From assembly GCA_945883905.1 (NCBI GenBank), contig CAMCYL010000004.1, positions 2,190 through 66,189 on the forward strand: a stretch of DNA of 64,000 bases, written 5' to 3'. This stretch comes from Akkermansia muciniphila. Lineage in GTDB: Bacteria > Verrucomicrobiota > Verrucomicrobiia > Methylacidiphilales > CAMAQI01. A model generated the notes under the pieces. It did no database searches and had not been told where the DNA came from. It was given only the letters and a program-made list of their open reading frames with translations. Of the stretch, positions 31,991 through 58,317 are shown piece by piece. A program made the position numbers and the translations under genes. Numbering within the stretch: position 1 is the first letter of the stretch; each line of letters starts with the position of its first letter.

Positions 31991-31994
31991 ATTT

Positions 31995-35796: not shown

Positions 35797-35943
35797 ATCT
35801 GGTTGAGATCTCACTGCAAAATCAACTCTTCACTGTAAGCTCCCACTCAGGCCCTCGCTCAATTATTCCTGCTTTATTTGAAACTTTGAAAAAGAACCGA
35901 TGATTTAAGTAATAGTTTAGACTCCGTTATAATAGAAAATGAA

Positions 35944-40633: not shown

Positions 40634-40796
40634 TTTTAATTCAATTAAGTATTATAAAATATTTAAAAATACATTAATAATAAATATTTAATTTGATTAT
40701 GTATTATAATGGATGATAATTAAGAGTCAATCAGAATTATTGGATATTTTTCTGATCTTAGTGTCGATTCGAAACTAAAGCTTGCGAGGAGAAAAA

Positions 40797-41873: not shown

Positions 41874-41904
41874 AATAAAAAAAGAATAGAAGTAAGGGCC
41901 ATAT

Positions 41905-43011
41905 ATGAAAATCGGATTGATTAAAGAGATTAAGAAACATGAGTATCGAGTTGGACTAACGCCGATGAGCGCCAAAGAGTATATTCAATCGGGCCATACC
42001 GTGCTTGTGGAATCTCAGGCAGGAATAGGATCTGGCTTTTCAGATGAGGATTATAGCCGTGCCGGATGTCAGATTGAATTATCTAAGAAAGCAATTTTTG
42101 ACCAATCTGAAATGATAATTAAAGTAAAAGAGCCGTTGCCTGAAGAGTTTGAGCTATTTCAAGAGGGACAAATACTTTACACTTATCTTCATCTAGCCGC
42201 AGATCGTCCTCAAGCTGAAGCACTTTTACGAAAAAAGGTGAGTGCCATTGCTTATGAAACAGTCGTTGAAAGCGATCGCTCTCTTCCATTGCTTGTTCCG
42301 ATGAGTCAGATTGCGGGACGACTTGCAATCCAAGAAGGAGCTAAATACCTTGAGAAACCGATGGGAGGAAGAGGGGTTCTATTGGGAGGAGTTCCAGGAA
42401 TTCGCAAAGGGAAGGTGCTTATTTTAGGGGGAGGGATCTCTGGGTTAAATGCCTGTCAAATGGCTGTTGGCTTAAATGCAGATGTCACGATTGTGGATAT
42501 TTCTTCAAAGCGTCTTGCTGAATTGGATTCAATGTTTGGAGGTCGAGTTAAAACTCTCTATTCAAATTTTTATAATATTGAAACAGAACTTGTGGATGCT
42601 GATTTAGTCATCGGTGCGGTTTTAATTCCTGGGGCTGCAACTCCTAAGTTAATTAAAAAAGAGCATCTCACAAAAATGAAACCCGGCTCTGTGATTGTTG
42701 ATGTCGCTGTTGATCAAGGAGGTTGTTGTGAGACAACCCGTGCGACTTATCACGATCAACCGACTTATGTGGTGGATGGAGTGATTCATTATTGTGTTGC
42801 GAATATGCCTGGAGCTGTAAGTCTTAGTTCGACTTTTGCGCTAACGAGTGTGACTAATCGATATGGACTTCAGATCGCAAATCAAGGACTTGAAGCGGCT
42901 TTAAAAAACTCGCAACCACTAAGGGAGGGATTAAATTGTTATCAAGGACGCTTGATGAATCAAGCCGTCGCAGAAGCGATTGATATTCCATTTGAACCTT
43001 ATTTAAATTAA
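41905..43011 (+). CDS. ald: Alanine dehydrogenase
   Basis: MKIGLIKEIKKHEYRVGLTP.., ..VLILGGGISGLNA.., ..VDVAVDQGGCCETTRATYHDQPTYVVDGVIHYCVANMPGAV is canonical Ald. Confidence 0.92.
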   Translation: MKIGLIKEIKKHEYRVGLTPMSAKEYIQSGHTVLVESQAGIGSGFSDEDYSRAGCQIELSKKAIFDQSEMIIKVKEPLPEEFELFQEGQILYTYLHLAADRPQAEALLRKKVSAIAYETVVESDRSLPLLVPMSQIAGRLAIQEGAKYLEKPMGGRGVLLGGVPGIRKGKVLILGGGISGLNACQMAVGLNADVTIVDISSKRLAELDSMFGGRVKTLYSNFYNIETELVDADLVIGAVLIPGAATPKLIKKEHLTKMKPGSVIVDVAVDQGGCCETTRATYHDQPTYVVDGVIHYCVANMPGAVSLSSTFALTSVTNRYGLQIANQGLEAALKNSQPLREGLNCYQGRLMNQAVAEAIDIPFEPYLN

Positions 43012-43052
43012 TTGTTCATGTATAAAGAAGTCCGAAACAAAGGAAGACACAA

Positions 43053-44372
43053 ATGAAAAAAAATAACGCTGGCGATTTTCGATATGCCGTGGGCGAAAAA
43101 ACAGTTCCTTGGAATGCCGTAGGTGAATTTTATGATGTTGAAGATGCCGTTCAAGTCGCGCGATTTTTATTTCCAACACAAGAACCGAATAGTGAGTATC
43201 AATCAGGTCTTAAATTAGTTCAAGAAGGACTCATGAAGATGCGTCAACAAGGAAAGCCTGCGACTAAGTTGACTCTCGGAAAAACGGTTCAAAAAGCGGA
43301 GGAAATCATTGCTGAGTACACAGGATCTAAATATGCCTGCTTGACGACGAACTGGACTGCGGGGATGGAGATCGCCTATAAACTTTCAGGATTACAGCCA
43401 GGTGATGAGGTCATTATGCCAGCGATTACTTTTGTCGCTACAATGGCCTATCCGTTGAGTATTGGAGCAAAAATTGTTTTTGCAGATATTGATCCTGAAA
43501 CGATTAATATCGATCCCGCTGACATTGAACGTAAAATTACTCCTAAAACTAAAATGATCGTTCCAGTTCATATCGGTGGAACTCCTTGTGACATGGATCC
43601 GATTATGGCGATTGCTAAAAAGCATAGTCTTTATGTCATGGAAGATGCCGCCCATGGACTCGGAGGAAAGTATAAAGGAAAAAGTCTTGGGTCTATCGCT
43701 CATTTTGGAGGACATTCACTCCATGAAGTGAAAAATATTAATTCTTTTGGAGAGGGGGGGACTCTCTTAACGAACTTAGACTGTGGAGAGCAATTTTCGA
43801 AAGCCCGCTTTCTTGGGCTTGATTTCACAAAAAAAATAAAAAATTGGCTTTATGATATCTCTCCGATTATTGATCGCTTTGGTAAACCTCAAGTCGCAGG
43901 AAACCACTCCTTTACAGAGATTCAAGCATTAGGACTCATTCTTCAGATGAAACGGCTTGATGAGATTATTGCAAGACGGAAAAAAGCAGCTCAAAAAATG
44001 AATGAAATTCTAAAGCAAGAACGAGGAATTTTAGTTGAAAAAGCGGACACACAAGAAACTTATGGAACCCATCATCTCTATTTGTTGCGAATCGAACCAC
44101 AAATCGTTGGTGGAACCATTCAAGAGCTAACAAAAAAACTTTCAGACAAAGGGCTTACTTGTATTACTCACTTTGGGCCAATGTATCGATTCAATATTCT
44201 TAAATCTTTTGGGTATGATGAAGAGAGCATCGCAAAAAGTTGCCCTGTGACTGAGCGAATGTTTGACACATCCTATACGCATCTACCATTGTACCCATTG
44301 ACAGAGGAGCAAATTAACTTTCAAGCGAATGCCGTGGTTGAAGCGGTAAGAGAAATGAAATCAAACAAATAA
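43053..44372 (+). CDS. DegT/DnrJ/EryC1/StrS-family PLP-dependent sugar aminotransferase
   Basis: ..EVIMPAITFVAT.., ..VMEDAAHGLGGKYKGKSLGS.., ..SLHEVKNINSFGEGGTL (PLP-Lys followed by GEGG). Confidence 0.85.
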   Translation: MKKNNAGDFRYAVGEKTVPWNAVGEFYDVEDAVQVARFLFPTQEPNSEYQSGLKLVQEGLMKMRQQGKPATKLTLGKTVQKAEEIIAEYTGSKYACLTTNWTAGMEIAYKLSGLQPGDEVIMPAITFVATMAYPLSIGAKIVFADIDPETINIDPADIERKITPKTKMIVPVHIGGTPCDMDPIMAIAKKHSLYVMEDAAHGLGGKYKGKSLGSIAHFGGHSLHEVKNINSFGEGGTLLTNLDCGEQFSKARFLGLDFTKKIKNWLYDISPIIDRFGKPQVAGNHSFTEIQALGLILQMKRLDEIIARRKKAAQKMNEILKQERGILVEKADTQETYGTHHLYLLRIEPQIVGGTIQELTKKLSDKGLTCITHFGPMYRFNILKSFGYDEESIAKSCPVTERMFDTSYTHLPLYPLTEEQINFQANAVVEAVREMKSNK

Positions 44373-44377
44373 ATTTT

Positions 44378-47300
44378 ATGTCGAAAATGACAAAACTACT
44401 CTCGATTTGCATAGGGCTCGTTTTATTTACATATTTAAAAGCGGAAATCGTAATTCCATTTTTTGATAAACCTCCTGTGGTCGATGGTCGGGTGTCTGAT
44501 AAGGAATGGGATGGGGCTCCAACACTCGACTTGGTAGGGTTAAAAGGAGACCCGATTACAAAATTGGCTCAGGTCCGAGTTGCGTACGATCAATCAAATC
44601 TTTACTTTTTGTTTATTAATCAAGAACCTGTAATGAAAAATCTCCGAAACGATTTTACTCATACTGAAGAGCGGGATGTCCAGATTTGGAGTGATGATGT
44701 CGTGGAGATGATTATTGATCCCTACCGCGCTGAAGCATCCGATGCTTTTCATATTCTTACGAATGCTCGGGGGATCGTCTATGATGCCCACAATCGCAAT
44801 ACCGTTTGGAATCCCCAAATAAAAATTTTAACTTCTAAAGAACAAGAACGTTGGATCGTCGAAGTCTCTCTTCCTTTTCGTGATATTGGATATACCCCGC
44901 AAGGAGGGGAACGATGGGATATGAATTTTGCTCGGCAAGAGAAACAAAAGGGAGAGTTGAGTAATTTAGTCGGTAAAGAAGGAGAAGCTGGCTTCATTCA
45001 TCCGAGTCGCAGAAAAACATTTATTTTTGGTGCTACCAAAAAAAATACGGTTGAACTTTTAGGCTTTTTAAAAAAGGGAGAACCTTTTGCTCAACTTCAG
45101 GTCAATAATTTTGGTACAGAAAAGAAGGAATGGATGATACGAGTGAATAGCACTCAAGATGGAAGTTCCCTCTCGACAGAAACAAAAAAAATTAGTTTAG
45201 ACGTTAAAAAAAGTGAAAAAATAGAGATTCCTTACATCATTAAGACTGGCACGCAACTTATTTCATTGGATGTTTTTGATCTGAATCTGAAGAAATCTGC
45301 CTATAAAAATCGAATCGAATACACAATCTATGATCCAAACGCATCGACTGCGCAACGTTATTGGAAAATAGAGGATCCACTTTACACAGAGCTTTTAGGT
45401 CAAGATTCTTACGGAATTATTAAAAACACGGGAATGCCAATTTTTGGAACAGGATTCGTTCATTTTAAATTTCGCACAGCAGGACTTCAGTATGGATTTC
45501 CATATTCTGAATTTGAGTATTATCAAACGGCGGCGCGTGATAAAATAAGAAATGTAATTCCTTGGCCTACCATTGAAGATCCTCGATATCCTAATTTTAG
45601 CCATTTTTCAAGGCAAACAGGAAGTAAAGCCTGTTTCTATCCATATTTTATCTTTGTTCCAGAAGTTCCCACTGTAAAAAGACATCCATTTCTCTATGAT
45701 CCTCGTGTAGAAGATTATTTTTTAAAAGATATCGAGCGAGGAATTAAAAAATATGGGGATATCATTGAAAGTCTTTGGTTTACAGATGAGCAATCAAGTG
45801 GAATGGCAGAATATGGAGTTCTTTTCTACGAAGAGCAGAAGGAAACATACCCCTTTATTCTTCAAGTGAATGAAACGGTTAAAAAAGAATATGGATATGG
45901 AAAGTGGGGGATTCCTGAAAATAAAGGAGATCGTAATCCCTTTCGATGGATCGCATGGAGACGTTGGCTTGCTGACCGCCAAGTCAATTTAATGTCGCGT
46001 GCTTTTAAATTGACAAAACAATTAGATCCTAAAATAGTCTTCATTTCTGAAGATCCTCAAGCGGTTCACCAAGCGGTAGATTATAGTCGTTGGAAAGGAA
46101 TATGTGATTTAGTCACACATCAATTATTTCCTCGTAAGACACCTGAGGACTATCACTTCGGCTTTATCACAAAACATATCGCAGATCTATCAGGTGTTTC
46201 TGAAATATGGCCCTGTCCGCATGTTGAAGAGTATGCAGGCAGCTTTACCCCTGAAGAAACGGTTGGTCTTTTAAGTCAAATGGTTCAAAATGGAGCCACG
46301 GGAATGACAATGGCGCCTGTCGATGCCATTGGAATGAGTGAAAAAAAGAAGACCCTACACGATGAAGAATTTGGAGCTCCTGATCGCTGGAAAACAGTTC
46401 TAAATGTCATTGATGAGTTGCGCCAAACTAAAAAACCAATCTATCCTAAAGCCGACCATGCTCTTTTATATTCGACGGATACGATTGCCACTTATCCCAT
46501 GTATGAAACGAATGAAGAATTACCGATGGGTTATACACTGTTAGGACCTAGTACTCGTGGGTGGTTTGATTTTATCAGCGACTATCAAATAGAGAGAAAA
46601 GAAAAGAATTTGAATCATTATAAGGCAATTTATATTGCAACTGCGAAGTATCAAAATGAGAAAACCGTCCGAGAGCTAATGAAATATGTGGAGGAGGGAG
46701 GTACCCTTGTTTCTTTGGATCCGGAAGTATTCTCCTTTTTTTCGAGTGGAGACTCATCAGCAGACTTGAGAGAAAAATTATTTGGCATTGAGGTTCTTGG
46801 ATCTGACTCACACTCAAGTCGAATTCAATGGGGAGAGATTAAAGACCTCGTTCAAGGAGGAACCCCTCAAAAGATTAAAATTAAAAATGAAAAAGTAACT
46901 GTTATCGGGAGCTTCGAAGATGGAACCCCTGCAATTGTTTCGAACACTTATGGCAAAGGAAAAGCGATTTACTTTGCATCATCCCCTTGTTTTTCACGTT
47001 GTGTGAATCATACAGGATGGAGAACTGCGTTGAAGAAGTTCCAAATCTCCTTAGGAATTCAAATCGATCAAAAAATTTGGCGGTACCAATTACCGATGAA
47101 TTTAGCTGCCAAACTACCAAGCAGAAAAAATAATTGTCTGACCAATAACTATGTCGAATGGCGTCAAATGAATCCAATTCCCATAGGAAATATAGATACA
47201 AAAGGAACATATCAATATGAAATTGCTCCAGATGCCGTCGCAGATATATCAGCAGTGAACACAGAAATTCCCTTTGAAAAAGGGAAGCTAACGAATCGTC

Positions 47301-47674
47301 GTGCAGCGGCTAATGCTGGAAATGTGGATTACGGTATAGGGAAGATCGAAGATTGGATTGTGACCTATGATAAAGAACTTAAAGGAGTCATCACCTACAA
47401 TCTTCAAAAACCGTATCAGATAGAGGGGGTGTCGGTAACCTTTTCGGGAATATTACCAAGCCTTAAGGTTATGCTCTCTGATGATGGGAAGAATTGGAGA
47501 GAGGTAGGGACTTATCATGAGAAAAAAGCAAAAGAGACCAGTCCATTGGATGTACGTTGCTTTGAAATCACATGGAAAAAATCTAAGGCACAATATATGA
47601 AGCTTGATTTAGGAGTTCGCGAACTAGGAGAGACTCTTTCTCTTGCTGAAATCGATATTTTTGGTCTCCCCTAA
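44378..47674 (+). CDS. Giant secreted multidomain protein: CBM9-like N-terminus, glycosidase-like/GATase1-like core, discoidin (F5/8 type C)-like C-terminus (paralog I)
   Basis: Signal peptide MSKMTKLLSICIGLVLFTYLKAE. PPVVDGRVSDKEWDGAP..SDDVVEMIIDP is CBM9-like. Motifs shared with 54653-57637: YSRWKG, ADLSGV.EIWPCPH.E, NGATG, GGTLV.LDP.VF, KIWR.Q.P, CLTNNYVEW, KGKLTNR. The C-terminal end ..SDDGKNW..YMKLDLG..LSLAEIDIFG. Confidence 0.6.
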   Translation: MSKMTKLLSICIGLVLFTYLKAEIVIPFFDKPPVVDGRVSDKEWDGAPTLDLVGLKGDPITKLAQVRVAYDQSNLYFLFINQEPVMKNLRNDFTHTEERDVQIWSDDVVEMIIDPYRAEASDAFHILTNARGIVYDAHNRNTVWNPQIKILTSKEQERWIVEVSLPFRDIGYTPQGGERWDMNFARQEKQKGELSNLVGKEGEAGFIHPSRRKTFIFGATKKNTVELLGFLKKGEPFAQLQVNNFGTEKKEWMIRVNSTQDGSSLSTETKKISLDVKKSEKIEIPYIIKTGTQLISLDVFDLNLKKSAYKNRIEYTIYDPNASTAQRYWKIEDPLYTELLGQDSYGIIKNTGMPIFGTGFVHFKFRTAGLQYGFPYSEFEYYQTAARDKIRNVIPWPTIEDPRYPNFSHFSRQTGSKACFYPYFIFVPEVPTVKRHPFLYDPRVEDYFLKDIERGIKKYGDIIESLWFTDEQSSGMAEYGVLFYEEQKETYPFILQVNETVKKEYGYGKWGIPENKGDRNPFRWIAWRRWLADRQVNLMSRAFKLTKQLDPKIVFISEDPQAVHQAVDYSRWKGICDLVTHQLFPRKTPEDYHFGFITKHIADLSGVSEIWPCPHVEEYAGSFTPEETVGLLSQMVQNGATGMTMAPVDAIGMSEKKKTLHDEEFGAPDRWKTVLNVIDELRQTKKPIYPKADHALLYSTDTIATYPMYETNEELPMGYTLLGPSTRGWFDFISDYQIERKEKNLNHYKAIYIATAKYQNEKTVRELMKYVEEGGTLVSLDPEVFSFFSSGDSSADLREKLFGIEVLGSDSHSSRIQWGEIKDLVQGGTPQKIKIKNEKVTVIGSFEDGTPAIVSNTYGKGKAIYFASSPCFSRCVNHTGWRTALKKFQISLGIQIDQKIWRYQLPMNLAAKLPSRKNNCLTNNYVEWRQMNPIPIGNIDTKGTYQYEIAPDAVADISAVNTEIPFEKGKLTNRRAAANAGNVDYGIGKIEDWIVTYDKELKGVITYNLQKPYQIEGVSVTFSGILPSLKVMLSDDGKNWREVGTYHEKKAKETSPLDVRCFEITWKKSKAQYMKLDLGVRELGETLSLAEIDIFGLP

Positions 47675-47743
47675 AGATCATAAGGGTTTATTTGTCTCCT
47701 ATTATAAGCTTGTATCAAAGAAAGCTATAATTAGCATGAACCG

Positions 47744-48145
47744 ATGAAAAACACCTCAAGTCGAGATAGCGGCTTTAGCTTAATTGAGGTGCTTGTTGCG
47801 ATTACATTATTGATGGTGGGGATGCTAGGCATATTAGCACTCCTCCCTGTTGGAATGATCGACTATCATGATGCAAAGATGAAAAGCGTTGAATCGCAAA
47901 TGGTTGATTTTGTTGTTAAACAATGTTCAACCGGTAGTCCCTACGAACTGACTGGTCATAAATTTTACTTTGACCAACAAGGAGTCCTTTGTTCTGAAAA
48001 GGACTATGAGTATCTTATCACACTTTCAGTAAATCAAGTTCATGGGATACCGAATAATCAATTACTTACGCTTCAATTGAAAATTATTCGAAAAGGAAGT
48101 CGGAATCCAACGTACCAAAACACACAGCTTTTTAAAAGAACTTAA
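47744..48145 (+). CDS. Prepilin-type N-terminal cleavage/methylation domain protein, GspI-like minor pseudopilin (Verru_Chthon cassette-type)
   Basis: MKNTSSRDSG|FSLIEVLVAITLLMVGMLGIL has G at -1, F at +1 and E at +5. 133 aa. Confidence 0.8.
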   Translation: MKNTSSRDSGFSLIEVLVAITLLMVGMLGILALLPVGMIDYHDAKMKSVESQMVDFVVKQCSTGSPYELTGHKFYFDQQGVLCSEKDYEYLITLSVNQVHGIPNNQLLTLQLKIIRKGSRNPTYQNTQLFKRT

Positions 48146-48147
48146 AT

Positions 48148-49209
48148 ATGTCTAAAAATCGCGCTTTTGGATTACTAGAATTGTTAATTGCTATGACCAT
48201 TTTGATTATGTTAATGGGAGTTATTTTTTTTTCCATCTCTCAGGTCTCAAAATTAACGATTAAAACAAAAACAGAGATTGATGGTTATCGATCTGTACGC
48301 TTTGGAATGGAAATAATTAATCGAAAACTCAGCCAAGCCACGCTTAATTCTTATTGGGACTACTATACGAATGATGGTAAAAGAGTTAAAGACTACAATG
48401 TGCAAGAACCTTCTACTTATGGAAGGTACTCAGAACTTCATTTTGTTTCTGCGCCGTTAAATAAATTAGGGATTACTTCTCCCTCTAAATCTCACGGCAT
48501 CTTTTTTCAATCCCCTCAAGGCTATTCTCAAAACTCTGACTTACAAGGCGTTAAAGGTCTCTTAAATATATCTGGTTTTTTTTGCGGCGAATATATTATA
48601 CCTGCTCCCATTTCGTTATTTAAATCGGAGAAAAGATTTGGACTTCTGGAAATGCTTATTCCCACAGAACAATCGAATATCTATGCCTCTCGCTTTCAAA
48701 CAGATATAAATCAAGGATCTAATTATGCATGGTTTTTAGGTTGGATGGGGGACTTAGATACTCGTCGTTATATCGCCCCTGTTGCAGAAAATGTATTAAC
48801 GGCGATCTTTGTCCCACATTTTTCTATCAGTGATGACGTCGGTGTTTTAAACTCAGAGAATAGTCTAACGCCCAACCTCTTTTACGACTCAAGGCAAATC
48901 GGCCCCAATAACTCGACAGTAAAATTGGTGCGTCGAGTCGGTGGATCTTGGCAAGCAAGTTGGCTCCATCAACTGCCTCCTTTTGTAGATGTCTATCTTT
49001 TAGGGGTCAGCGAAACTTCAGCACAGGCTCTACAAGCAGATCCCGACTTGATATCCGATCTGTTTAGTGGAATTATATTTGAACAAGAAAATACAATTAC
49101 AAAGAATTTAGATTTAGTCGTCAATCGTGGACGGAAATATAATTATGATCTGCGTTGGTTTAAATCAACCGTGACTTTATTTTCGTCTCAAAACGAAGCG
49201 GGATTTTAG
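48148..49209 (+). CDS. Prepilin-type N-terminal domain protein, GspJ-like minor pseudopilin (Verru_Chthon cassette-type)
   Basis: MSKNRA|FGLLELLIAMTILIMLMGV has A at -1, F at +1 and E at +5. 353 aa. It starts 2 nt after the preceding stop. Confidence 0.7.
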   Translation: MSKNRAFGLLELLIAMTILIMLMGVIFFSISQVSKLTIKTKTEIDGYRSVRFGMEIINRKLSQATLNSYWDYYTNDGKRVKDYNVQEPSTYGRYSELHFVSAPLNKLGITSPSKSHGIFFQSPQGYSQNSDLQGVKGLLNISGFFCGEYIIPAPISLFKSEKRFGLLEMLIPTEQSNIYASRFQTDINQGSNYAWFLGWMGDLDTRRYIAPVAENVLTAIFVPHFSISDDVGVLNSENSLTPNLFYDSRQIGPNNSTVKLVRRVGGSWQASWLHQLPPFVDVYLLGVSETSAQALQADPDLISDLFSGIIFEQENTITKNLDLVVNRGRKYNYDLRWFKSTVTLFSSQNEAGF

Positions 49210-49212
49210 GCT

Positions 49213-52200
49213 ATGCAACAACATCGTTCGACGAATTATAAAATTTATAATATTTCAAGCCGAGGCTTTGCGATTCTACTCTCAATGGGAGCGTTGCTAT
49301 TACTTTCAATTATTGTGATATCCTTTCTAGAAACAGTACGTACAGAAAAAACGTTAATAGGTCTTAACGGAAGTGAACAGGAAGCTCGTCGTGCCGCAAG
49401 CTCAGCTGTTCAACTTGTGATGGCGCAAATTCAAAAAGCGACCTCTGATTCCTCGGGAGTGTGGAGTTCCCAGCCTGGCTTAATTCGAGTGCATCAATCT
49501 GGTAACACGATGGTTGCCTATAAACTGTATTCCTCTGATCCCTCAAAAATGATTTCTTCAAGTTTTAAGGAAGGCGAAGATGATTTTAGTGGTATTGAAG
49601 TAGGTGGAAATTGTACTGATTTAAATCAACCGATCTACTTTCAAGGAAGGACCGTTTATCCAATTCTCGATCCCTCTTTATTTAACAATGGTGATCCATT
49701 GGTTAAAGGATTAGAAAATCGCCATGGATACGGGAACGAAAATTTTCAAATGAAAGTTCAATGGATCTATCAACTTGCAGATGGTAGATTGGCTGTAAAT
49801 GGATCTTTTACAAAGGATAATCCTCCCGTCGCACGGTTTGCCTTTTGGGCAGATGATGAAAGTACTAAAGTCAATATAAATACTGCCTCAGAGGGAGTTT
49901 ATTGGGATATTCCGAGAACTGATTCGAGAGAAGATGTCAATTTTTCACTAAAGATTCCGGCTTTAAATGAATTCCAACGTTATCCTGGACACCCCGCAAC
50001 GACATCTTTAAGTCCCATTCTTAATTCAAAATCCTTGGGCGGAATTTTTAATAAAACAGGTCGTGAATATGAAAAAGCCGTCTATAGTTTTATCCCTCGT
50101 ATCTCTGAAGGTGGCTCTGAAGGCGGAACTGTAGAGCCACGAAATCCCTTAATTCAAGATACCGATCGCCTATTTGGATTTGTGGATGAGATGATCTTTA
50201 AAAACGATTCCTCTGACTTAGATCGTCAAGTGCAAGCTTTTAGCTTAAAAAATGCCGCAAACCTTTCATTTGTTCTGACGGCCAATAGTCGTTCGCCAGA
50301 GGAAACCGTTTTTTCAACTCCTCGTGTAACTATTTGGCCTCTTCATACAAATAAAGACTGGTGGACAGCCGCAGAAAAAATGATCGCTTTTTGCTCGAAA
50401 TTAAATGGTCATCTTTATGCGTTTCAACGCGAAAAAGCGTTAGATGCCATTTTTGATTATCAAGGGATTTCTCGAAATAAAGAGCTTTATGCCTATCTAC
50501 AAACATTAATTTCTAAGTCTCCTCCACATCTCAATACGAGCCTTAAAAATCATTGGGGAATAGATGCGGATCAAAATTTAACACTTTTATTTGATTATAT
50601 TCGAAGCGGTCCAGCATTACAGCACCCACAACTTGAAAAAAGCTATACAACTCAATTTAATAATATTCCTTCAATGCAAGCCGCTTCTGGAGCAGTCCAT
50701 CCGATTCTTATCAATAATACGAAAGGAATGGGAAGAACACTAAGTGTTTCACAAGTTGGTATTATCATCAGTGCATTGAGTGGAGCAGCTCCAGCCTCCA
50801 TGCAAATCTCTGCTTCGATCGCTGTGCAATTTTATAATCCAAGCCAAGGAATCGTGTATTATACGCCTCAAGGACTCGAGATTCGTATTTCAGGAATGGA
50901 TGCACTTCGTTTAAATGGGAATAATTTATTCGGCGGTGGCAATGTTTCAGCTTGGGAGTCTTTTGGCGGAGGATATATTAAAGATCTTACGAGGAATGCG
51001 ATGGGCGGTTTTTTAAGCTTAAGCACTTTTTTCTGTCATGAACTTCTTGATGCGAACGGTGATGTTTCACCGATTTTGTGGCTTGGAGGATATCCAAGAC
51101 CTAATAGAGCACCGCTTTGGAATGGAACGCAAGGAGCTATTTGTGTAGTCGATGCTACTGCTCCAGTTATTTTTTCTGGTGGGACAATAACAGTTGAAAT
51201 TCGAGATAAGAATTCACTTAGTATTATTCAAAAATGCGAAGTTAACCTTGATTCAAAAACCTTTAATCTTCCGAATTCAGCTCCTGCAACAACTCAAGCC
51301 ATTACTCCTTATGCTGCATCTGCAGGTGATCCTGATTGGTTATGGTGGAATAAAATACTCTATAATGATACCGCGCTTCCTCGCTATCGATTAATCTGGC
51401 CTGCTTTTGATACTGTTTTCTCATCTATCCTAAAAGCAAGCAGCCAAACCAATGGGGATTTTCGATTACTTGCGGCTCGCACAGGAACAAGCAGTGATTC
51501 AATCATTAACGCTAACTTTTTTGAATCCTCCACTGGGTCAACACCTCTAGTGCACGACTTTAAATCTCCTGAGGCAAATGAACAAGCCGCCGCTGCAGCT
51601 GGAACTACAAGTGCCTACTATCCAGGATCTTCTGATGAACAGAAAACCAATGAAGGAGCACTTGTCAGCGGAGCTTCCTATACAACAGGTATCTACTCTT
51701 CAATGTATCGACCGCAGGTAAATCGTAATGTATCTGAAGCTCTACAATCCAATGGTTTAAAAGGAGATTGGGACACTGGTATTTCAAACTATGGCGACGG
51801 TGCCTATATTAATAAACCAGATGAATCCTTTCGATCAAATGATACGGGCGCTAATAGATCGATTGCAGCAACCTATACTCAAGATACCTCCAGTAGAGGA
51901 ATTCATTACTTGCGTTGGTATGGCACCGCTGATGCCCTCGCAATTGCGGGGGCAGGGAATGCTGACACGTGGTACTCTCCAAATCGTCAAATGCCCTCAC
52001 CTGTGATGTTTGGATCATTGCCAAGCGGGGTGAAACGACTTCTACCATGGCAAACCTTTCTCTTTTCACCCGTAAGTGCAGCTGATTGTGATAAAGGAGG
52101 CCGTGTCCATCCCGGTTGGGGAAAAGACCTCTCCGACCATCAGCTTTTAGATTTTTTTCGAATGCCGGTTGCTGAACCGTATGCGATTAGTGATGCAACA

Positions 52201-52836
52201 TCTACCGCAGGTAAAATAAATGTTAATTTTCAATTAATTCCCTTTTCACATATCAAACGAGCCTCGGGTATTCACTCGGCTTTAAAATCTGTAAAAATTG
52301 GCGCTATCCCTTTATCCGACGCTTCAACTTATAAGTCAGGGAGCGTTCAATCTGCCTCATATCGATTTGAAATTGATCCCGAAGAAACTGTAAAGGGAAT
52401 CGAAGAAAAATTTAAAACGCCTTCAGCATCCTATCGAACCGAAAGCGAGATTGCAGAAATTTTTCTCTATCCAAAAGGAGTTCCCTATGCACCGAATAAT
52501 ACAGCTCTTTACTCTTGGTGGAGGACAAGATCTTTAACAGGAGACAATATGAGAGAACGCCCTTATGTAGAATTATTTCCTCGTCTCACCACTCGATCTA
52601 ATGTTTTTACGGTTCATCTTTGGGGAGAATCATTGAAAAAAAATAAGCATACAAACCCTTCATTTTGGGATGAACAACGTGACCAAGTAAGAGGAACTTT
52701 TCGTGGTTCAACAATGATTGAACGTTATATTGATCCACAAAATCCAAATCTTCAAGATTTTGCGTTGAATTCGAATCAACGCTTAAGTGATTTTTATCGA
52801 TTTAGAATTATTCAAAGCAACCAGCTCGTTCCGTGA
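49213..52836 (+). CDS. Giant GspK-like pseudopilin-type protein (Verru_Chthon cassette protein A-like)
   Basis: 1207 aa. N-terminus ..SSRGFAILLSMGALLLLSIIVISFLE has no E at +5, as in GspK. FWADDESTKVNINTASE (about nt 49843-49893) resembles the GspK 'DE..K.N.N' motif. It starts 3 nt after the preceding stop. Confidence 0.65.
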   Translation: MQQHRSTNYKIYNISSRGFAILLSMGALLLLSIIVISFLETVRTEKTLIGLNGSEQEARRAASSAVQLVMAQIQKATSDSSGVWSSQPGLIRVHQSGNTMVAYKLYSSDPSKMISSSFKEGEDDFSGIEVGGNCTDLNQPIYFQGRTVYPILDPSLFNNGDPLVKGLENRHGYGNENFQMKVQWIYQLADGRLAVNGSFTKDNPPVARFAFWADDESTKVNINTASEGVYWDIPRTDSREDVNFSLKIPALNEFQRYPGHPATTSLSPILNSKSLGGIFNKTGREYEKAVYSFIPRISEGGSEGGTVEPRNPLIQDTDRLFGFVDEMIFKNDSSDLDRQVQAFSLKNAANLSFVLTANSRSPEETVFSTPRVTIWPLHTNKDWWTAAEKMIAFCSKLNGHLYAFQREKALDAIFDYQGISRNKELYAYLQTLISKSPPHLNTSLKNHWGIDADQNLTLLFDYIRSGPALQHPQLEKSYTTQFNNIPSMQAASGAVHPILINNTKGMGRTLSVSQVGIIISALSGAAPASMQISASIAVQFYNPSQGIVYYTPQGLEIRISGMDALRLNGNNLFGGGNVSAWESFGGGYIKDLTRNAMGGFLSLSTFFCHELLDANGDVSPILWLGGYPRPNRAPLWNGTQGAICVVDATAPVIFSGGTITVEIRDKNSLSIIQKCEVNLDSKTFNLPNSAPATTQAITPYAASAGDPDWLWWNKILYNDTALPRYRLIWPAFDTVFSSILKASSQTNGDFRLLAARTGTSSDSIINANFFESSTGSTPLVHDFKSPEANEQAAAAAGTTSAYYPGSSDEQKTNEGALVSGASYTTGIYSSMYRPQVNRNVSEALQSNGLKGDWDTGISNYGDGAYINKPDESFRSNDTGANRSIAATYTQDTSSRGIHYLRWYGTADALAIAGAGNADTWYSPNRQMPSPVMFGSLPSGVKRLLPWQTFLFSPVSAADCDKGGRVHPGWGKDLSDHQLLDFFRMPVAEPYAISDATSTAGKINVNFQLIPFSHIKRASGIHSALKSVKIGAIPLSDASTYKSGSVQSASYRFEIDPEETVKGIEEKFKTPSASYRTESEIAEIFLYPKGVPYAPNNTALYSWWRTRSLTGDNMRERPYVELFPRLTTRSNVFTVHLWGESLKKNKHTNPSFWDEQRDQVRGTFRGSTMIERYIDPQNPNLQDFALNSNQRLSDFYRFRIIQSNQLVP

Positions 52837-52872
52837 TTTGACATTTAACACGTAAGTTTATAAGCTTATATT

Positions 52873-53508
52873 ATGCTCAGATGTTCTAAGTTTAATTATT
52901 TCAATGCTGCTTTTTCATTGATTGAGATTCTTAGCACTCTTGCGATTATTAGTATTTTAATTGGATTTAGTCTGCCCAAATTCTTTGCAATGCAAGAAAA
53001 TGCAAGACTCTCTCAAGCCGCTGATAATGTCATTGATCAAATAAGACTTGCACGAATAGAAGCCGCTACACTCAATCGACCTGCAGCAGTTGTATGGATC
53101 GATCAAAAAAATGTAGACTCAAATACTCACAAACGTTTTATTCAAATACAACGATTTATTCAGAGTCCTTACCGAAAAACACAGGATGATTTTAGTTTTA
53201 TTCCCATGAGCAAAAAAATAACTCTTCCCCAAGCAATTCTCATTCATCCAGAGGCAGAGTGGTCGAGTTTACTTCAAAAACGGACTTCAGATGTAGATTA
53301 TATAGAAGGAATAAAAGGGGATTATCGAATGATCATCATTTATCCTAGTGGTCGTACCTCTTATGATCTCTATGATTCAGAAGGAAATCCATCAGAAGTT
53401 TTTCTGACTTTAGTTTCTGAAGATGAACTTCTCCTTACAAAACCAAAAAAAATCATTACAATCACGATCGATCCTTTAACTAGTGTAGCACGTCAATGGA
53501 GAAAATAG
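52873..53508 (+). CDS. Prepilin-type N-terminal domain protein, GspH/FimT-like (Verru_Chthon cassette-type)
   Basis: ..FNAA|FSLIEILSTLAIISILIGFSLPKF..AADNVIDQIRLARIEAATLNRPAAVVW has A at -1, F at +1 and E at +5. 211 aa. Confidence 0.7.
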   Translation: MLRCSKFNYFNAAFSLIEILSTLAIISILIGFSLPKFFAMQENARLSQAADNVIDQIRLARIEAATLNRPAAVVWIDQKNVDSNTHKRFIQIQRFIQSPYRKTQDDFSFIPMSKKITLPQAILIHPEAEWSSLLQKRTSDVDYIEGIKGDYRMIIIYPSGRTSYDLYDSEGNPSEVFLTLVSEDELLLTKPKKIITITIDPLTSVARQWRK

Positions 53509-53509
53509 T

Positions 53510-54562
53510 ATGTCTAACAAACCAACAATGGATCAAATTGCCAAAGTTCTCGGTTTGAGTCGAATGACCGTTTCTACGGTCATAAATCATAGATCTCAAA
53601 AGCGATATGTTGCTACCAAAACTGAGAAAATAGTTCTCTCCTATTTAGATCAGATTGGGTACGTACGCAACTATCATGCAATGCGCTTAAAAATACCTAC
53701 TAAAGAGATCGTAGGGATATTTTATGACGGATCATTTATTGTTTCTCATGTGACGCAAGTTTTTAGTCAACTGATTAATGAGACTTTAAGTCATTCAGAC
53801 TCCCGTCTTGAACTCAAAATTGCTCCACCAACAGAAGCCGCCTCTGCGATCGAGGAGTTAATTGGACGCGGTGTCACGCACTTGGCTTGGATCATGGAGC
53901 AATCAAGTTTATATTCGTTTGAGACGATCCCTCGAGTTTTTAGTCTTCTTGAGAAGAAAAGATCGGCTATTTACAATTTTTCCGATTATAATTCTGACTT
54001 TAACCTGCATAAACGTTTCCCAAAAATATATGCATTAGGTTATGATCGTACGGCTGCCTTTCAATCCTTGGCGCAGAAACTCAAAAAATTTAAACATAAA
54101 CGTATTTGCATTCCACAAATTAGATACTCATCACAAAAGAGGATTCTGCAATATTTCGATTGGAAAAGCATAGGAATTGAGGTCTTTTTTATTCATCCTG
54201 AAAATCTTCAAGAATCTTCGAGTTCTACTTATTTCGAAAAAATTGCGAACGAAATTATTTATTATAAAAAAGAGCACTTGATTACAGCAGCTATATTTTT
54301 AGATGATGAATATGCGGCTCGCGTTCTTTCTCAGTTAACGAGAAAAAAAATTATGGTCCCTCAAGATCTCTCAATAACAGGAATGGATAATAGCCCTATT
54401 TTAGAGTTTCTTCCTCAGAGAATTGATACTATCGGAGTTCCTGTAGAAAAAGGTTATACGTATTTGAAAAACTGGATCTTTAGTCGTCAAACAGCAAGAG
54501 TACAATTGTTAGAGATGAAAATTATTTCTGGAGAAACATTAGGAGTTGCCTCTTCTTTGTAA
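53510..54562 (+). CDS. LacI-family transcriptional regulator
   Basis: HTH MDQIAKVLGLSRMTVSTVINHRS plus a periplasmic-binding-fold C-terminal domain. The ATG lies 1 nt after the TAG of the preceding pseudopilin gene. Confidence 0.85.
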   Translation: MSNKPTMDQIAKVLGLSRMTVSTVINHRSQKRYVATKTEKIVLSYLDQIGYVRNYHAMRLKIPTKEIVGIFYDGSFIVSHVTQVFSQLINETLSHSDSRLELKIAPPTEAASAIEELIGRGVTHLAWIMEQSSLYSFETIPRVFSLLEKKRSAIYNFSDYNSDFNLHKRFPKIYALGYDRTAAFQSLAQKLKKFKHKRICIPQIRYSSQKRILQYFDWKSIGIEVFFIHPENLQESSSSTYFEKIANEIIYYKKEHLITAAIFLDDEYAARVLSQLTRKKIMVPQDLSITGMDNSPILEFLPQRIDTIGVPVEKGYTYLKNWIFSRQTARVQLLEMKIISGETLGVASSL

Positions 54563-54652
54563 CTTCTTTCGGTTTATGTACGCATACAGATCTCAAACAA
54601 AAGATCCGCTTTTTGAACAGACCTTAGTTCATTTAAAACAGAATATTATTAC

Positions 54653-57637
54653 TTAGCGTGACCAAACTTCAAATTCATTAAGCCAAAGCGAAATTCCTTG
54701 GGGTCTTTGGTCAAAAGCAACTTTTATAAAACGATAAAATTTACTTTCTGGATTTAATTTCCATATTTTTTTAATATTATTACTTTCATTAAAAACATAA
54801 TCGCTTTCACTTAACATACTCCACGAAATCCCATCGATTGATCCATAAATTTTAACCTTTGGAAGATATCCACTGTAGTATAATACAAATCGATCGATGT
54901 TTTTATATTCATTTAAATTGACTATTAAATCAATATTTTCTTGTTGCGACCAGCGAACTGAGGATTCGTAGATGTTTCCTTCGTCAATACCTTTTACCGT
55001 CGAGATGTTCATCCGAGCAAGTCGATTTGTTAGCTTTCCTGTATTAAAAGTTTGAAAGCGCTCGCCTTTTGTGTCGGCGATTGAAACGCTGTCATTTTTT
55101 GGAAAAGAATTAAAATAATAACTCCCTTCATTAATTTTTTGGTTTCCAACAGATGAAGGTGTTTCATTGCTCCACTCCACATGATTTCCTGTAAGACAAT
55201 TTCCATTTACTAAATCTCTCGACCAAACTTCCATCTCAGCAAGAACCATTTTTTTGTTGGTGGGTCTTGATGAAAAAGAAATTTTAATAAAACGTTTTTC
55301 AGTTTTTAGTCCGGATAGATTTAAGATGATCTGCTCAGAATTATTTCCTAATTCCTTAGCTACCGTGCTTGTTGCGCATTCAAACTTATTGCCGTCAGAC
55401 GAAGCGTAGACTTTCATTTCTGGTAAATATCCAGAGCAGAATAGTTCAACGCGATCTAATAATTCTTGTCCATTCAAATTGATCCACAAATCAAATGCCT
55501 TAGCATCATCAAATCTCACTACATAGGGGTCAATGTTAATTAACTGCAAGTTTTCTTGTTTGGTATCTATTCCTGTTTTAGTAGAGTTCATTCGATTTGT
55601 TAGCTTTCCCTTTGAAAAGCTCTGCCACCGTTCTCCCCCTGTATCATTGACCGTTGCAAATGAATTATCTGCATTTTGATACCAATAAGAGGCCCCACTA
55701 TTTACCTTATTGTTCAATGGAATAGGTCTATTAAGAATCCACTCTACATAATTATTCGTTAAGCACATTCCTTCTTTATTTTCTTTTTTAGAAATAAAAG
55801 AGTCTGGAAATTGAAATCTCCATATTTTTTCATCGACACGGCCACCTATCGAGCTGTGTATGGCACGCATGAGACGTTTCCAAGCACCATCGCCAACAGT
55901 TCTAGCATCGTCACAAGGATTATAAGCGAACCAAAAGGCTCTTCCTCCGTTAGGATAGTACTTACATGTTACCGCAGGAGAGTTATCACCATAAAAAGTC
56001 GCCCAAGAAGTTAAGCCTTGGTCAAAAGCTCCTGTGTAACGAGTTTCACCATAAACGGTTGCCCAATAGTTGGATATTTCAATATATTGAGTAGGGGCAG
56101 TTTTAGTCACATCAACTCCAAATAGTGATTTTCTACGACCGGAAATATTAGTTCCGAGTGGATTTTGATTAAAAACCAAAGGATCTAACGCCACCAGTGT
56201 CCCCCCTTGTTTCACATAATTTTCTAATTTATCAATCACACTAGCTCTTTGAATTTTAGACGCGGGAAGATAAATAATTTTAAACTGCGATAAATTTAAT
56301 CCAGCGAGAACCTGTTCGTCATTAATAAACTTGAAAGCGGCTCTCACTTTATCGCTACTTAAAAAATTATATAAAAACTCAATATTATCTTTTCTTTCAA
56401 CAGCATACTCAGTTGTATAAACGTTTGCTGTAGTCGATGCATATGTATCTGTCGAATAGAGAATCGCTGTATCGGGTACGGGCTGTTTTATTTTAGGTAA
56501 TGTTTCTGCGACTTGGCTTATTTTTTTTATTAAATTCCATCTGGTTTTATCTGCAAATCGATCTTCATAAACAAAATACTCCTTACTAAACTGCCCCAAT
56601 CCATCCATAGGACAAAACTTTAATCCTGTTGCTCCATTTCTAAAAATATCACTAAAAATTTCCAAAGACTCTTCTCCATCGAATGAGTTAATATAGGCCT
56701 CGATATGGGGACACGGCCATATTTCTTCAACTCCGCTTAGATCAGCAAGCAGCTTTGTTTGAAATCCAAACATACGACGATGATAGTCACCAGAATCGAG
56801 TAGCTGTTGGGTGGCAATATCCATGACCCCTTTCCATCGACTATAGTCAAACGGTTGATGTAGTGCTGTTCCATTCCATGAAACAATTTTTATATTTGAA
56901 TCAACCCCTTTAACGATTCCTCTAACCTCTTCTGCAAATAATTGAAGTTTATTATAAAGCCATTTTCGATACGCCCACCAACGCTGTGGCGTCTTATCTT
57001 GGAAGCTTAAGGGAATACCATAAACGCCTCCTCCAAACTGATCTTTAACTTCTTGATTCGCTTTATCAATAAATGGATAGGTGCCTTTTCCACCATGTTT
57101 CATAAATATTTCGATCCCACCATATTCATCCCACTCCATACGTTCATCGCCTAAATTAATTCCAAATACTAAATCTCGATCATTAAATAATACTTTATTA
57201 AGTTCTGTTTTGTAAGTAGCTTGAACCGCAGGATCTACTAGCATTGGTAAATCAAATGATCGAGGTATCGTTGAGGGAGCAGTTGATGCTGTAATTAAAA
57301 CACAAGCTTTTACTCCGTTTTTTCGAATATTTTCCGGATAATTATAACGTGTGTCATAGAGCTCATTAAATCCAATATAAATAATATGTTTATCGTTTTT
57401 TAATTCACGAAAAACATCTTCGTATTTATAACGCATCCCCATCTGAAGCGAAAAGGGTTGCAACCAAGGATAAGCTCTTGTTTGATTAAACATAATTGCT
57501 CCGTTTTGAGCGAGCGGATTTCTTTGCTCTCCTAGAAGCTCATTATAAAGAGGATCTGTTAACTTTTGAACTCGATTTGAAGATAGACTAAAATCAAAAA
57601 GAAATATTAATGTTAATAGTATGTATATTTTTTTCAT
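54653..57637 (-). CDS. Giant secreted glycosidase-like protein with two tandem discoidin-like C-terminal modules (paralog II)
   Basis: The ATG at 57637 gives the signal peptide MKKIYILLTLIFLFDFSLSS; the track start at 57676 is less likely. It shares the motif series with 44378-47674. The C-terminal module is duplicated (CLTNNYVEW..KGKLTNR..EMEVWSR, then CLTGNHVEW..TGKLTNR..EFEVWSR). Confidence 0.6.
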   Translation of the reverse strand: MKKIYILLTLIFLFDFSLSSNRVQKLTDPLYNELLGEQRNPLAQNGAIMFNQTRAYPWLQPFSLQMGMRYKYEDVFRELKNDKHIIYIGFNELYDTRYNYPENIRKNGVKACVLITASTAPSTIPRSFDLPMLVDPAVQATYKTELNKVLFNDRDLVFGINLGDERMEWDEYGGIEIFMKHGGKGTYPFIDKANQEVKDQFGGGVYGIPLSFQDKTPQRWWAYRKWLYNKLQLFAEEVRGIVKGVDSNIKIVSWNGTALHQPFDYSRWKGVMDIATQQLLDSGDYHRRMFGFQTKLLADLSGVEEIWPCPHIEAYINSFDGEESLEIFSDIFRNGATGLKFCPMDGLGQFSKEYFVYEDRFADKTRWNLIKKISQVAETLPKIKQPVPDTAILYSTDTYASTTANVYTTEYAVERKDNIEFLYNFLSSDKVRAAFKFINDEQVLAGLNLSQFKIIYLPASKIQRASVIDKLENYVKQGGTLVALDPLVFNQNPLGTNISGRRKSLFGVDVTKTAPTQYIEISNYWATVYGETRYTGAFDQGLTSWATFYGDNSPAVTCKYYPNGGRAFWFAYNPCDDARTVGDGAWKRLMRAIHSSIGGRVDEKIWRFQFPDSFISKKENKEGMCLTNNYVEWILNRPIPLNNKVNSGASYWYQNADNSFATVNDTGGERWQSFSKGKLTNRMNSTKTGIDTKQENLQLINIDPYVVRFDDAKAFDLWINLNGQELLDRVELFCSGYLPEMKVYASSDGNKFECATSTVAKELGNNSEQIILNLSGLKTEKRFIKISFSSRPTNKKMVLAEMEVWSRDLVNGNCLTGNHVEWSNETPSSVGNQKINEGSYYFNSFPKNDSVSIADTKGERFQTFNTGKLTNRLARMNISTVKGIDEGNIYESSVRWSQQENIDLIVNLNEYKNIDRFVLYYSGYLPKVKIYGSIDGISWSMLSESDYVFNESNNIKKIWKLNPESKFYRFIKVAFDQRPQGISLWLNEFEVWSR

Positions 57638-57724
57638 AGTTATTCTCATTATAATGTTCTTAAAATATTTTTGCAAATATCAAACATGTTAATAATTGCA
57701 ATAACAACTTATATAAGACAATTA

Positions 57725-57740
57725 TGTATTATATAATACA
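57725..57740. promoter_or_regulatory. Perfect 16-bp palindrome TGTATTATATAATACA upstream of the paralog II gene
   Basis: It equals its own reverse complement and lies about 90 nt upstream of the ATG at 57637. The half-site tgtattata recurs at 40700-40708 in the ROK/oxidoreductase divergent region. Confidence 0.3.
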
Positions 57741-58282: not shown

Positions 58283-58317
58283 AAAAAAAGGAGCTTATTG
58301 CTAAGCTCCTTTTTTTG
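58283..58317 (-). terminator. Rho-independent (bidirectional) terminator after the PEP-CTERM gene
   Basis: aaaaaaaGGAGCTTattgctAAGCTCCttttttt has an 8-bp GC-containing stem (58289-58296 / 58303-58310) flanked by an A-run and a T-run. It sits 17 nt beyond the stop at 58334. Confidence 0.75.

Follow-up and report, generated by a model that had tools for sequence, protein, structure and literature searches.

Verrucomicrobiota and their relatives play a major part in degrading the glycans of algae, plants and mucin, and we know of no SusC/D in Verrucomicrobiota. In type IVa pili, the minor pilins FimU-PilVWX are accompanied by the tip adhesin PilY1, and Myxococcus xanthus possesses multiple alternative minor-pilin/PilY1 clusters. 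We describe here a 64 kb stretch of DNA (contig CAMCYL010000004.1; the window hereafter, with positions counted from its start) in which four prepilin-type genes lie beside a LacI-family regulator gene and two genes for giant glycosidase-like proteins. Four-gene sets of this type are listed in NCBIfam as Verru_Chthon cassette proteins A to D, and these database entries give no function. Pilus-type genes have been implicated in the glycan use of these bacteria only recently, through the MUL loci of Akkermansia: they are needed there for mucin uptake, a type IV-like pilus has been proposed for attachment to fucose-rich glycans in Akkermansiaceae (PMC13174399, PMC12418764), and in Verruconatronum a PulG-like pseudopilin with 67 paralogs is up-regulated on alginate (PMC13274419).

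The locus found in the window is a sugar-regulated glycan-utilisation cluster, of a bacterium of Verrucomicrobiota type, with its own four minor (pseudo)pilins. Concerning their role, we tentatively favour the reading that the cassette is a sugar-regulated, locus-specific tip module, which could couple a type IV filament or type II secretion system (T2SS) machine encoded elsewhere to the neighbouring large exoproteins.

The cassette proteins and their likeness to pseudopilus tip subunits

By profile matching of their products, the four genes are identified as a Verru_Chthon cassette in the order B-C-A-D, contiguous on a single strand. The best NCBIfam match of protein A is TIGR02600 (E 4e-221, 737.3 bits for a cut-off of 332.3), aligned over its full length (residues 18-1207). 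The best matches of the three other proteins are likewise their own models, each under its cut-off: TIGR02598 for B (E 1.6e-10, 41.3 bits, cut-off 51.4), TIGR02599 for C (E 7e-51, 173.5 bits, cut-off 256.5) and TIGR02596 for D (E 4.3e-19, 69.4 bits, cut-off 70), and B, C and D are, on these scores, divergent relatives of the models. The original prediction, made without database searches, had already named this family, and rightly so, in full for A and at a sub-threshold level for B, C and D.

Class III prepilin motifs with Phe at +1 and Glu at +5 are present in B (G|FSLIE), C (A|FGLLE) and D (A|FSLIE), and Pfam N_methyl matches the same three proteins. When family profiles were compared, C aligned with E. 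coli GspJ over 77 columns (95.6% probability, E 1.1e-8), versus 25-29 columns only, in the helix, with the remaining Gsp pilins. The D family aligned with E. coli GspH over 66 columns (95.5% probability), its matches to the remaining Gsp pilins being shorter or weaker (GspG 26 columns, GspI 18, GspJ 46 at 85%), and D also matches the GspH model TIGR01708 (E 9.5e-5). The A family aligned with the GspK profile over 79 N-terminal columns, through the helix and into a shared W-A-x-Q-P motif (hhalign, 95% probability, E 3e-8). Used as queries, E. coli GspJ, GspH and GspK preferred the families C, D and A, respectively. The second NCBIfam match of B is PilV TIGR02523 (E 1.6e-7), and against the GspG-K profiles B gave short N-terminal matches only (GspJ 66%, GspI 45%). 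Searched by sequence against the PDB, neither the A profile nor B, C or D matched anything, except for the N-terminal pilin helix of D. Since D is GspH-like, C GspJ-like and the N-terminus of A GspK-like, the cassette is read from these profiles as a complete H/I/J/K-type minor-pilin tip set with no major pilin, in which B may be the GspI/PilV-like member, a slot given to it by size and position only. Profile comparison thus backs the GspI/J/K/H-type reading proposed at the outset in D, in C and at the N-terminus of A, and B was not placed. Among the matches then expected, TIGR02600 on A and N_methyl on B, C and D were obtained; B, C and D fell below the TIGRFAM cut-offs, and A gave no T2SSK match.

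Protein A, the giant of the set, exceeds GspK about fourfold in size. Its N-terminus reads RG|FAILL, with Leu and not Glu at +5, and GspK lacks Glu5 as well. In a search space of 5.8 billion proteins its nearest homolog is 50% identical. Over 54 homologs at about 35% identity, more than 80 positions are invariant, including the blocks DDExxKVNINTA and HPG...PPDHLLLDLFWMPVVEPYAISEPFSTAGKINMNYQ, and the conservation profile delimits two conserved modules (residues 18-500 and 900-1207) around a variable centre (about 540-860). The AlphaFold2 (AF2) model of A has a pLDDT of 80.8 and a pTM of 0.87, and its residues 2-60 form a helix. Among its Foldseek matches, GspK/XcpX chains rank 3, 4, 5 and 31 at E 0.8-5.8, without significance, and the beta-propeller structures that also appear are non-significant only. 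An extension of the A-GspK alignment beyond the N-terminus was tried by greedy and sub-region hhalign and was not retained, being sub-significant (probability 16-27%) and suggestive only; in these sub-significant sub-region alignments the A motifs GKIN-N and S-N-T-Y-T-V face INxNT and S-x-Y-F of GspK. No catalytic family was recognised in A by Pfam, NCBIfam or PDB sequence searches, and no carbohydrate-binding module was detected in it by Pfam, its fragments and family consensus included.

The surrounding locus and related loci in other genomes

The main features of the locus are collected in Table 1. On the plus strand, giant paralog I, B, C, A, D and the LacI gene follow each other with gaps of 69, 2, 3, 36 and 1 nt, and re-mapping of the open reading frames (ORFs) reproduced exactly the frames, strands and gaps described before; giant paralog II converges on this plus-strand block from the opposite strand. 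Nine plus-strand genes form an uninterrupted block from 40782 to 54562 with gaps of at most 69 nt, the first three being spaced by 5-41 nt up to giant I. As this block begins upstream of the coordinates of the original prediction, the probable operon is larger than first described. Divergent from it stands an arm comprising the ROK regulator, the GHL6/GH42M protein and a ceramidase-like protein (Pfam), and the 729-aa GHL6/GH42M gene is part of this enzyme/regulator arm of the locus. The tight association of the DegT, AlaDH and GFO/IDH/MocA genes with giant I hints at an amino-sugar-containing glycan as the target, and a DegT homolog, 35% identical, also lies near a giant homolog in another locus (L084). 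The rest of the window is devoted mainly to sugar catabolism (MFS transporter, SIS protein, rhamnosidase, PfkB kinase, DeoC aldolase, DeoR and IclR regulators).

Table 1. Coordinates of the main features of the cassette locus in the window
Feature	Position	Strand	Basis and remarks
GHL6 + GH42M glycosidase-like protein, 729 aa	37263..39452	-	Pfam PF14871, PF08532; 742-aa homolog in L089
ROK-family regulator/kinase	39461..40633	-	Pfam ROK E 1.3e-42; divergent from the long plus-strand block; ROK also heads L089
GFO/IDH/MocA sugar oxidoreductase	40782..41873	+	Pfam PF01408, PF22725, PF02894; opens the nine-gene block; 31 nt to next gene
Alanine dehydrogenase (AlaDH)	41905..43011	+	Pfam AlaDh_PNT_C E 4e-84
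DegT/DnrJ/EryC1-type sugar aminotransferase	43053..44372	+	Pfam PF01041 E 1.6e-77; giant I begins 5 nt downstream
Giant paralog I, secreted, 1098 aa; N-terminus CBM9-like, core GH42-like, discoidin (F5/8 type C)-like domain at the C-terminus	44378..47674	+	Pfam CBM9_1, Glyco_hydro_42M, F5_F8_type_C
Cassette protein B, 133 aa, a small minor prepilin with the size and position of GspI/PilV	47744..48145	+	TIGR02598, TIGR02523, N_methyl
Cassette protein C, 353 aa, GspJ/PilW-like minor prepilin	48148..49209	+	TIGR02599; profile vs E. coli GspJ
Cassette protein A, 1207 aa, giant putative tip subunit, GspK-like	49213..52836	+	TIGR02600; hhalign vs GspK profile
Cassette protein D, 211 aa, GspH/FimU-like minor prepilin	52873..53508	+	TIGR02596, TIGR01708; profile vs E. 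coli GspH
LacI-family regulator, 350 aa	53510..54562	+	Pfam LacI, Peripla_BP_3; begins 1 nt past the D stop codon
Giant paralog II, secreted, 994 aa; core GH42-like, two discoidin-like repeats at the C-terminus	54653..57637	-	Pfam F5_F8_type_C, Glyco_hydro_42M; AF2/Foldseek
PEP-CTERM surface-sorting protein, 262 aa	58334..59122	-	Pfam PEP-CTERM E 5e-4; just beyond giant II

Both domains of the regulator are above their gathering cut-offs (PF00356, 31.0 for a cut-off of 27; PF13377, Peripla_BP_3, 36.5 for a cut-off of 26.5), and no NCBIfam equivalog model reached its cut-off on this protein. LacI recurs at cassette edges in other genomes, as detailed below, which supports the link of cassette and regulator put forward in the original prediction. 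Pfam scans of all 47 ORFs of at least 120 aa in the 64 kb window gave no secretin, no T2SSE/F, no major pilin and no prepilin peptidase, in agreement with the original prediction; our statements on missing core genes concern the window. A perfect 15-bp hairpin followed by a T-run, at 58283-58316 just 3' of the stop of the PEP-CTERM gene, constitutes a strong terminator, and a general promoter/terminator scan returned the same counts as in shuffled sequence.

The two giants align at 31% identity over 803 aa (BLASTP, E 2e-113), which bears out the motif sharing noticed earlier and identifies them, by sequence comparison, as true paralogs. Each begins with a basic then hydrophobic N-terminus (MSKMTKLLSICIGLVLFTYLKA; MKKIYILLTLIFLFDFSLSS), a candidate Sec-type signal peptide as had been supposed. 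The ORF of giant II extends to a TTG at 57676 (1007 aa), and the database gene (P0121) uses the ATG at 57637 (994 aa). The AF2 model of giant II (pLDDT 73.5) matched GH42, GH164 and GH35-type structures by Foldseek over about 660 columns (E 2.6e-19, probability 1.0), including the TIM barrel, the trimerisation domain and the beta-sandwich. A candidate acid/base, E165, is kept in 12 of 12 family members and a candidate nucleophile, E313, in 11 of 13, both window paralogs retaining the pair. From this predicted fold and Glu pair the giants are predicted to be GH42-like glycosidases, and the glycosidase-like character first attributed to the flanking proteins is to this extent supported. The GH42 catalytic model PF02449 did not match the giants in Pfam, where only the GH42M domain does, and in a PDB sequence search of paralog I only residues 738-867 found a match. 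The giants form a separate uncharacterised family. Its apparent rarity, suggested by a word-indexed search with 13 matches, was dismissed by an exhaustive profile search, which yielded 1,385 representative clusters at E <= 1e-30.

To place the cassette in a wider context, a pattern scan of species-representative genomes was used, giving 543 A relatives, of which the best 80 loci were analysed with flanks of up to 10 kb. A Verrucomicrobiota-type label is borne by 79 of the 80. Proteins B, C and D accompany A elsewhere, in the orders BCA(D), BCDA, DBCA and ABCD, and the cassettes are multi-copy: the complete genome CP170506.1 carries at least four loci and the metagenome-assembled genome (MAG) JBGGNE01 at least five, two of the latter with two A genes. 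These two (L027 and L048) each carry both A-family genes within one 24-kb locus with a LacI-family gene near each, the A genes of L027 being oppositely oriented, an arrangement that suggests local duplication of cassette-plus-regulator units.

The commonest neighbours are the PATR/PEP-CTERM family (32 loci) and the LacI family (23 loci, Pfam-verified). Of the LacI genes, 8 stand within 150 bp of the cassette, 12 within 1.4 kb and 23 within 5.6 kb, with only 2 beyond 6 kb. LacI density per 100 kb of flank falls outward from 4.5 to 2.4, 2.2, 1.0 and 0 (Fisher p = 0.014 for 0-2 kb versus more than 6 kb), and Peripla_BP_3 is found by Pfam in 7 of 97 direct neighbours versus 2 of 146 genes more than 6 kb away. 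Similarly, PEP-CTERM proteins make up 19 of 229 genes within 2 kb and 4 of 202 beyond 6 kb (p = 0.004), the PATR family 16 of 229 and 5 of 202 (p = 0.04), and proteins of at least 900 aa 24 of 229 and 3 of 202 (p = 8e-5), the last difference being inflated by truncation at locus ends. A local enrichment of carbohydrate-active enzymes (CAZymes) at cassette edges was considered and is unsupported: their Pfam frequency is similar directly adjacent and 6-10 kb off, and CAZymes, like sulfatases, abound at either distance, so that the data show no local excess of either. The neighbour census proposed with the original prediction consequently gives a divided answer, favourable for regulators, PEP-CTERM and large proteins and unfavourable for CAZymes. 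Solo A genes adjoin a PKD-metalloprotease or a CotH-LTD protein, and the closest relatives of the A of the window sit among GH141-like, GH29, GH95-like, DUF4838-CBM9 and LacI genes. The common theme of the neighbours is large exoproteins, not one enzyme class.

Only two links to core machinery occur among the 80 loci. In L079, a T2SSE-family ATPase gene (3408-4001) directly follows an A-family gene, and its N-terminus may be PilT-like according to our own reading of the sequence. In L067, which belongs to the same MAG on a different contig, a solo A gene is preceded by a secretin gene (1395-3476) 3 kb upstream, and a PKD-metalloprotease gene separates the two.

The giant family was also followed in six contexts of other lineages, and in five of them a prepilin-type gene stands directly beside the giant-family homolog. 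These prepilins have FTLIELLV-type N-termini, some with DUF1559 (PF07596; Pfam name SBP_bac_10), and a GntR-PBP or ROK regulator is usually close to the homologs. One context, L089 (1-13060, around P0123), shares its enzyme set with the window: beside a ROK gene it encodes a GH42M protein of 742 aa and a pair of giant paralogs, one of which aligns with giant I over its full length at 36% identity. It holds no cassette; three single PulG-like prepilin genes (250, 236 and 224 aa) are interleaved among the enzyme genes, and compared with the window it seems that nature has exchanged one type of pilin for another while the enzymes around it stayed the same. Giants of this enzyme family are thus found again and again beside prepilin-type proteins, and these are of two different kinds. 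Another context, L085 (6538-21278, around P0129), presents in order a GntR-PBP regulator, a DUF1559 prepilin, a 1387-aa giant homolog and a second prepilin, then 266-aa and 1138-aa proteins with a common N-terminal repeat, after which come one protein of 854 aa and a prepilin-like one of 192 aa; it may be another kind of pilin-enzyme cluster.

Elsewhere in the window, dnaN at 6927-8039 and a sign change of the GC skew at about 6-8 kb suggest a replication origin region at 6000-8100; the 316-aa ORF upstream of dnaN (5114-6064) has no Pfam match, and no dnaA was recognised there. A low-GC stretch at 28000-36000 (0.35-0.39 versus about 0.42-0.47 across the first 28 kb) holds three minus-strand ORFs (28425-31990; 250, 231 and 683 aa) with no Pfam match, the 250- and 231-aa ones having signal-peptide-like N-termini. 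Dispersed among housekeeping genes are a Fic/DOC gene (8041-9246), an AbiEii-like nucleotidyltransferase fragment of 175 aa (11934-12461) and a PD-(D/E)XK nuclease-family gene (26349-26750).

Proposed role of the cassette and competing explanations

According to the favoured reading, a prepilin peptidase encoded elsewhere would cleave B, C, A and D, and the processed B, C, D and A would prime a type IV filament, either a T2SS pseudopilus or a type IV pilus, and form its tip complex, capped by A. The conserved N- and C-terminal modules of A would dock on the filament or the machine, and its variable centre would confer locus specificity. Since the cassettes are multi-copy and each is locally controlled, the several copies of a genome are read as interchangeable tips that would serve a shared machine, some of them under LacI-type control. 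An inducing sugar would relieve LacI, and the cassette would then couple the machine to the adjacent exoproteins, here the two GH42-like giants, which could be driven across the outer membrane or held at the cell surface. Exoprotein coupling is favoured over glycan capture because the neighbours are varied large secreted or surface proteins and not glycan enzymes alone. In essence, this is the first of the hypotheses offered in the original prediction.

Several observations weigh against this proposal. To our knowledge, classical T2SS tips are not cargo-specific. A alone passes the curated NCBIfam cut-offs, B, C and D being sub-threshold; A resembles GspK robustly over no more than about 80 residues at its N-terminus; Pfam T2SSK (PF03934 / PF21687) and PilY1 gave no match to A fragments or to the family consensus even at E <= 10; and Foldseek found no significant PDB neighbour for the A model. 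Inverted-repeat scans of four intergenic regions and a generic LacI-box pattern revealed no LacI operator above chance. The census was based on our own crude ORF calls and clustering, with several loci from the same or related genomes, and set near genes against those further out in the same flanks; the comparison of proteins of at least 900 aa is biased by locus-end truncation, and CAZymes are about as dense far from cassettes as close to them. A member of the giant family adjoins the cassette in 0 of 82 other loci, which rules out that cassettes generally neighbour this family, leaves the specific cassette-giant pairing as a single case and contradicts the bracketing by giant paralogs as a general trait of the cassette. 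Finally, no paper naming the Verru_Chthon cassette or TIGR02596-02600 was found in our literature searches; the PEP-CTERM paper, presumably from the group behind the Verru_Chthon database models, makes no mention of the cassette.

Three other explanations deserve consideration. The main rival, which we regard as possible although rather doubtful, makes the cassette a glycan-capture fibre: the alternative tip of a (possibly retractile) type IV pilus, on which A would bind the target polysaccharide or particle and concentrate or import it for the enzymes of the locus. Such a fibre would be a pilus-based counterpart of SusC/D-type capture, sugar-induced through LacI. The setting of the window, a sugar-catabolism locus under LacI and ROK regulators, agrees with it, as do the variable central module of A and the occurrence of close A relatives among GH141-like, GH29, GH95-like and CBM9 proteins. 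The T2SSE-family ATPase gene that follows A in L079, if rightly read as PilT-like, would fit a pilus of this kind, and the single prepilins beside giant homologs bear DUF1559, whose Pfam name is SBP_bac_10. Precedents exist in the mucin uptake by Akkermansia MUL and the fucose-glycan pilus of Akkermansiaceae (PMC13174399, PMC12418764) and in the alginate-induced PulG-like pseudopilin of Verruconatronum (PMC13274419), but the Akkermansia MUL2 genes are a different set. Capture is further disfavoured by A itself, in which Pfam detects no carbohydrate-binding module and for which Foldseek gives no significant structural match to a lectin or adhesin, and by neighbours unrelated to glycans, such as the PKD-metalloprotease, CotH-LTD and PATR proteins.

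It could also be that the adjacency is coincidental, the cassette serving a general pilus or T2SS role (adhesion, motility, DNA uptake) while LacI controls the catabolic genes only, in genomes dense in sugar loci. The absence of the giant family from all 82 other cassette loci, the even distribution of CAZymes, the presence of LacI within 2 kb in only 12 of 80 loci and in mixed orientation, and the housekeeping neighbours of many loci (L094, for example) would be expected from this. We nevertheless consider it improbable: D and LacI are separated by 1 nt in an unbroken nine-gene block, the densities of LacI, PEP-CTERM and large proteins fall monotonically away from the cassette, giant homologs adjoin prepilin genes in 5 of 6 contexts of other lineages, and one general function is hard to square with multi-copy cassettes. 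Very unlikely in our estimation is the last possibility, that A is an enzyme or toxin-like effector carried at a filament tip, the three other pilins only presenting it and the invariant Asp, Asn, His, Arg and Trp forming an active site and not a docking surface. The number of invariant positions in the 54 homologs (more than 80, the DDExxKVNINTA and HPG blocks among them) and the lack of a match to any known fold are compatible with such a protein, but Pfam, NCBIfam and PDB sequence searches point to no catalytic family, and motifs of the GKIN-N type also occur in the GspK consensus (FNLNAL; INxNT), which points to a structural role.

The coupling of a shared machine to neighbouring exoproteins, if correct, would have consequences beyond this locus. 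It would bear on how, with no SusC/D-type system, Verrucomicrobiota and their relatives secrete enzymes of very large size and obtain complex polysaccharides. A broader proposition, which at this stage we hold to be somewhat unlikely, is that the Verru_Chthon cassettes are a family of interchangeable, substrate-induced tips, each with a giant GspK-like cap, on a shared type IV filament machine, and that they match one secretion/uptake engine to many polysaccharide loci, by choosing which exoproteins are exported or displayed or by capturing the cognate glycan. The cassette would in this case be the counterpart, in the Planctomycetes-Verrucomicrobia-Chlamydiae (PVC) group, of the specificity layer in the polysaccharide-utilisation loci of Bacteroidota. 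Underlying this is the hypothesis that alternative, regulated filament tips give one machine several specificities; if true, it would add to what is understood of how the tip complexes of the T2SS and of type IV pili work. A family that was named but function-less becomes testable through its complete tip set with a giant cap, its multi-copy occurrence and its recurrent LacI-type and large secreted/PEP-CTERM neighbours; the targets for genetics would be A, its variable centre and the neighbouring giants, and Verrucomicrobium spinosum and Chthoniobacter flavus are cultivable carriers.

Comparison with known systems

The closest described entity is the Verru_Chthon A-D set of NCBIfam itself, with which the window agrees in the best matches of all four proteins, in their contiguity on a single strand and in having multi-copy Verrucomicrobiota relatives, and from which it differs by the sub-cut-off scores of B, C and D and by an A whose nearest homolog is only 50% identical. 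The link proposed originally between such a cassette, its cargo-like flanks and a LacI regulator was thought to be undescribed. Indeed no paper on the cassette was found, and its links to LacI, PEP-CTERM/PATR and GH42-like giants were not found in the searchable literature, whereas the cassette as such was already catalogued in NCBIfam.

With the GspH-I-J-K tip of the T2SS (enterotoxigenic E. coli (ETEC) 3CI0; P. aeruginosa XcpUVWX) the cassette shares four prepilin-type genes with H-, J- and K-like members and no major pilin, and A, devoid of Glu5, begins with RG-(hydrophobic) as does the GspK consensus QRGVALL. In contrast, A is about four times as large as GspK, a robust alignment covers only about its first 80 residues and it has no Pfam T2SSK match; the gene order in the window is I-J-K-H, not H-I-J-K; and the cassette stands outside any gsp operon within the window and is multi-copy, some copies being tied to a sugar regulator. 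The type IVa FimU-PilVWX-PilY1 system resembles it: there, too, the priming/tip set is encoded away from the major pilin, the tip protein is very large and a genome can have several alternative sets. However, the window proteins have no PilY1/PilC beta-propeller match in Pfam or NCBIfam, and their large protein is a pilin-like subunit with an N-terminal helix, whereas PilY1 is a separate adhesin.

The Akkermansia MUL system (type IV-like pilus genes Amuc_1099-1102) is comparable as a pilus-type system of Verrucomicrobiota functionally tied to the acquisition of a complex glycan, but has another gene set (PilM, archaeal-type pilin). The expansions of PulG-like/DUF1559 (PF07596) proteins in the PVC group are comparable in that their prepilin genes are scattered through polysaccharide-utilisation clusters and flank giant homologs; they are single genes with one pilin each, whereas the window has a four-gene H/I/J/K-type set with a giant cap. 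As for the giants, their predicted fold, GH42M domain and candidate Glu pair resemble those of GH42 beta-galactosidases and alpha-L-arabinopyranosidases (5XB7, 4UZS), from which they are set apart by an identity of 11-13%, by extra CBM9 and discoidin-type domains and by a candidate signal peptide.

Tip complexes of minor pilins are of a known kind, and so are alternative tip sets and, in Verrucomicrobiota, the link between pili and glycan use. What appears to be undescribed is the H/J/K mapping of the cassette with a giant K-like cap, its multi-copy, regulator-linked organisation with a recurrent pairing with large exoproteins, and a family of GH42-like giants paired with prepilins.

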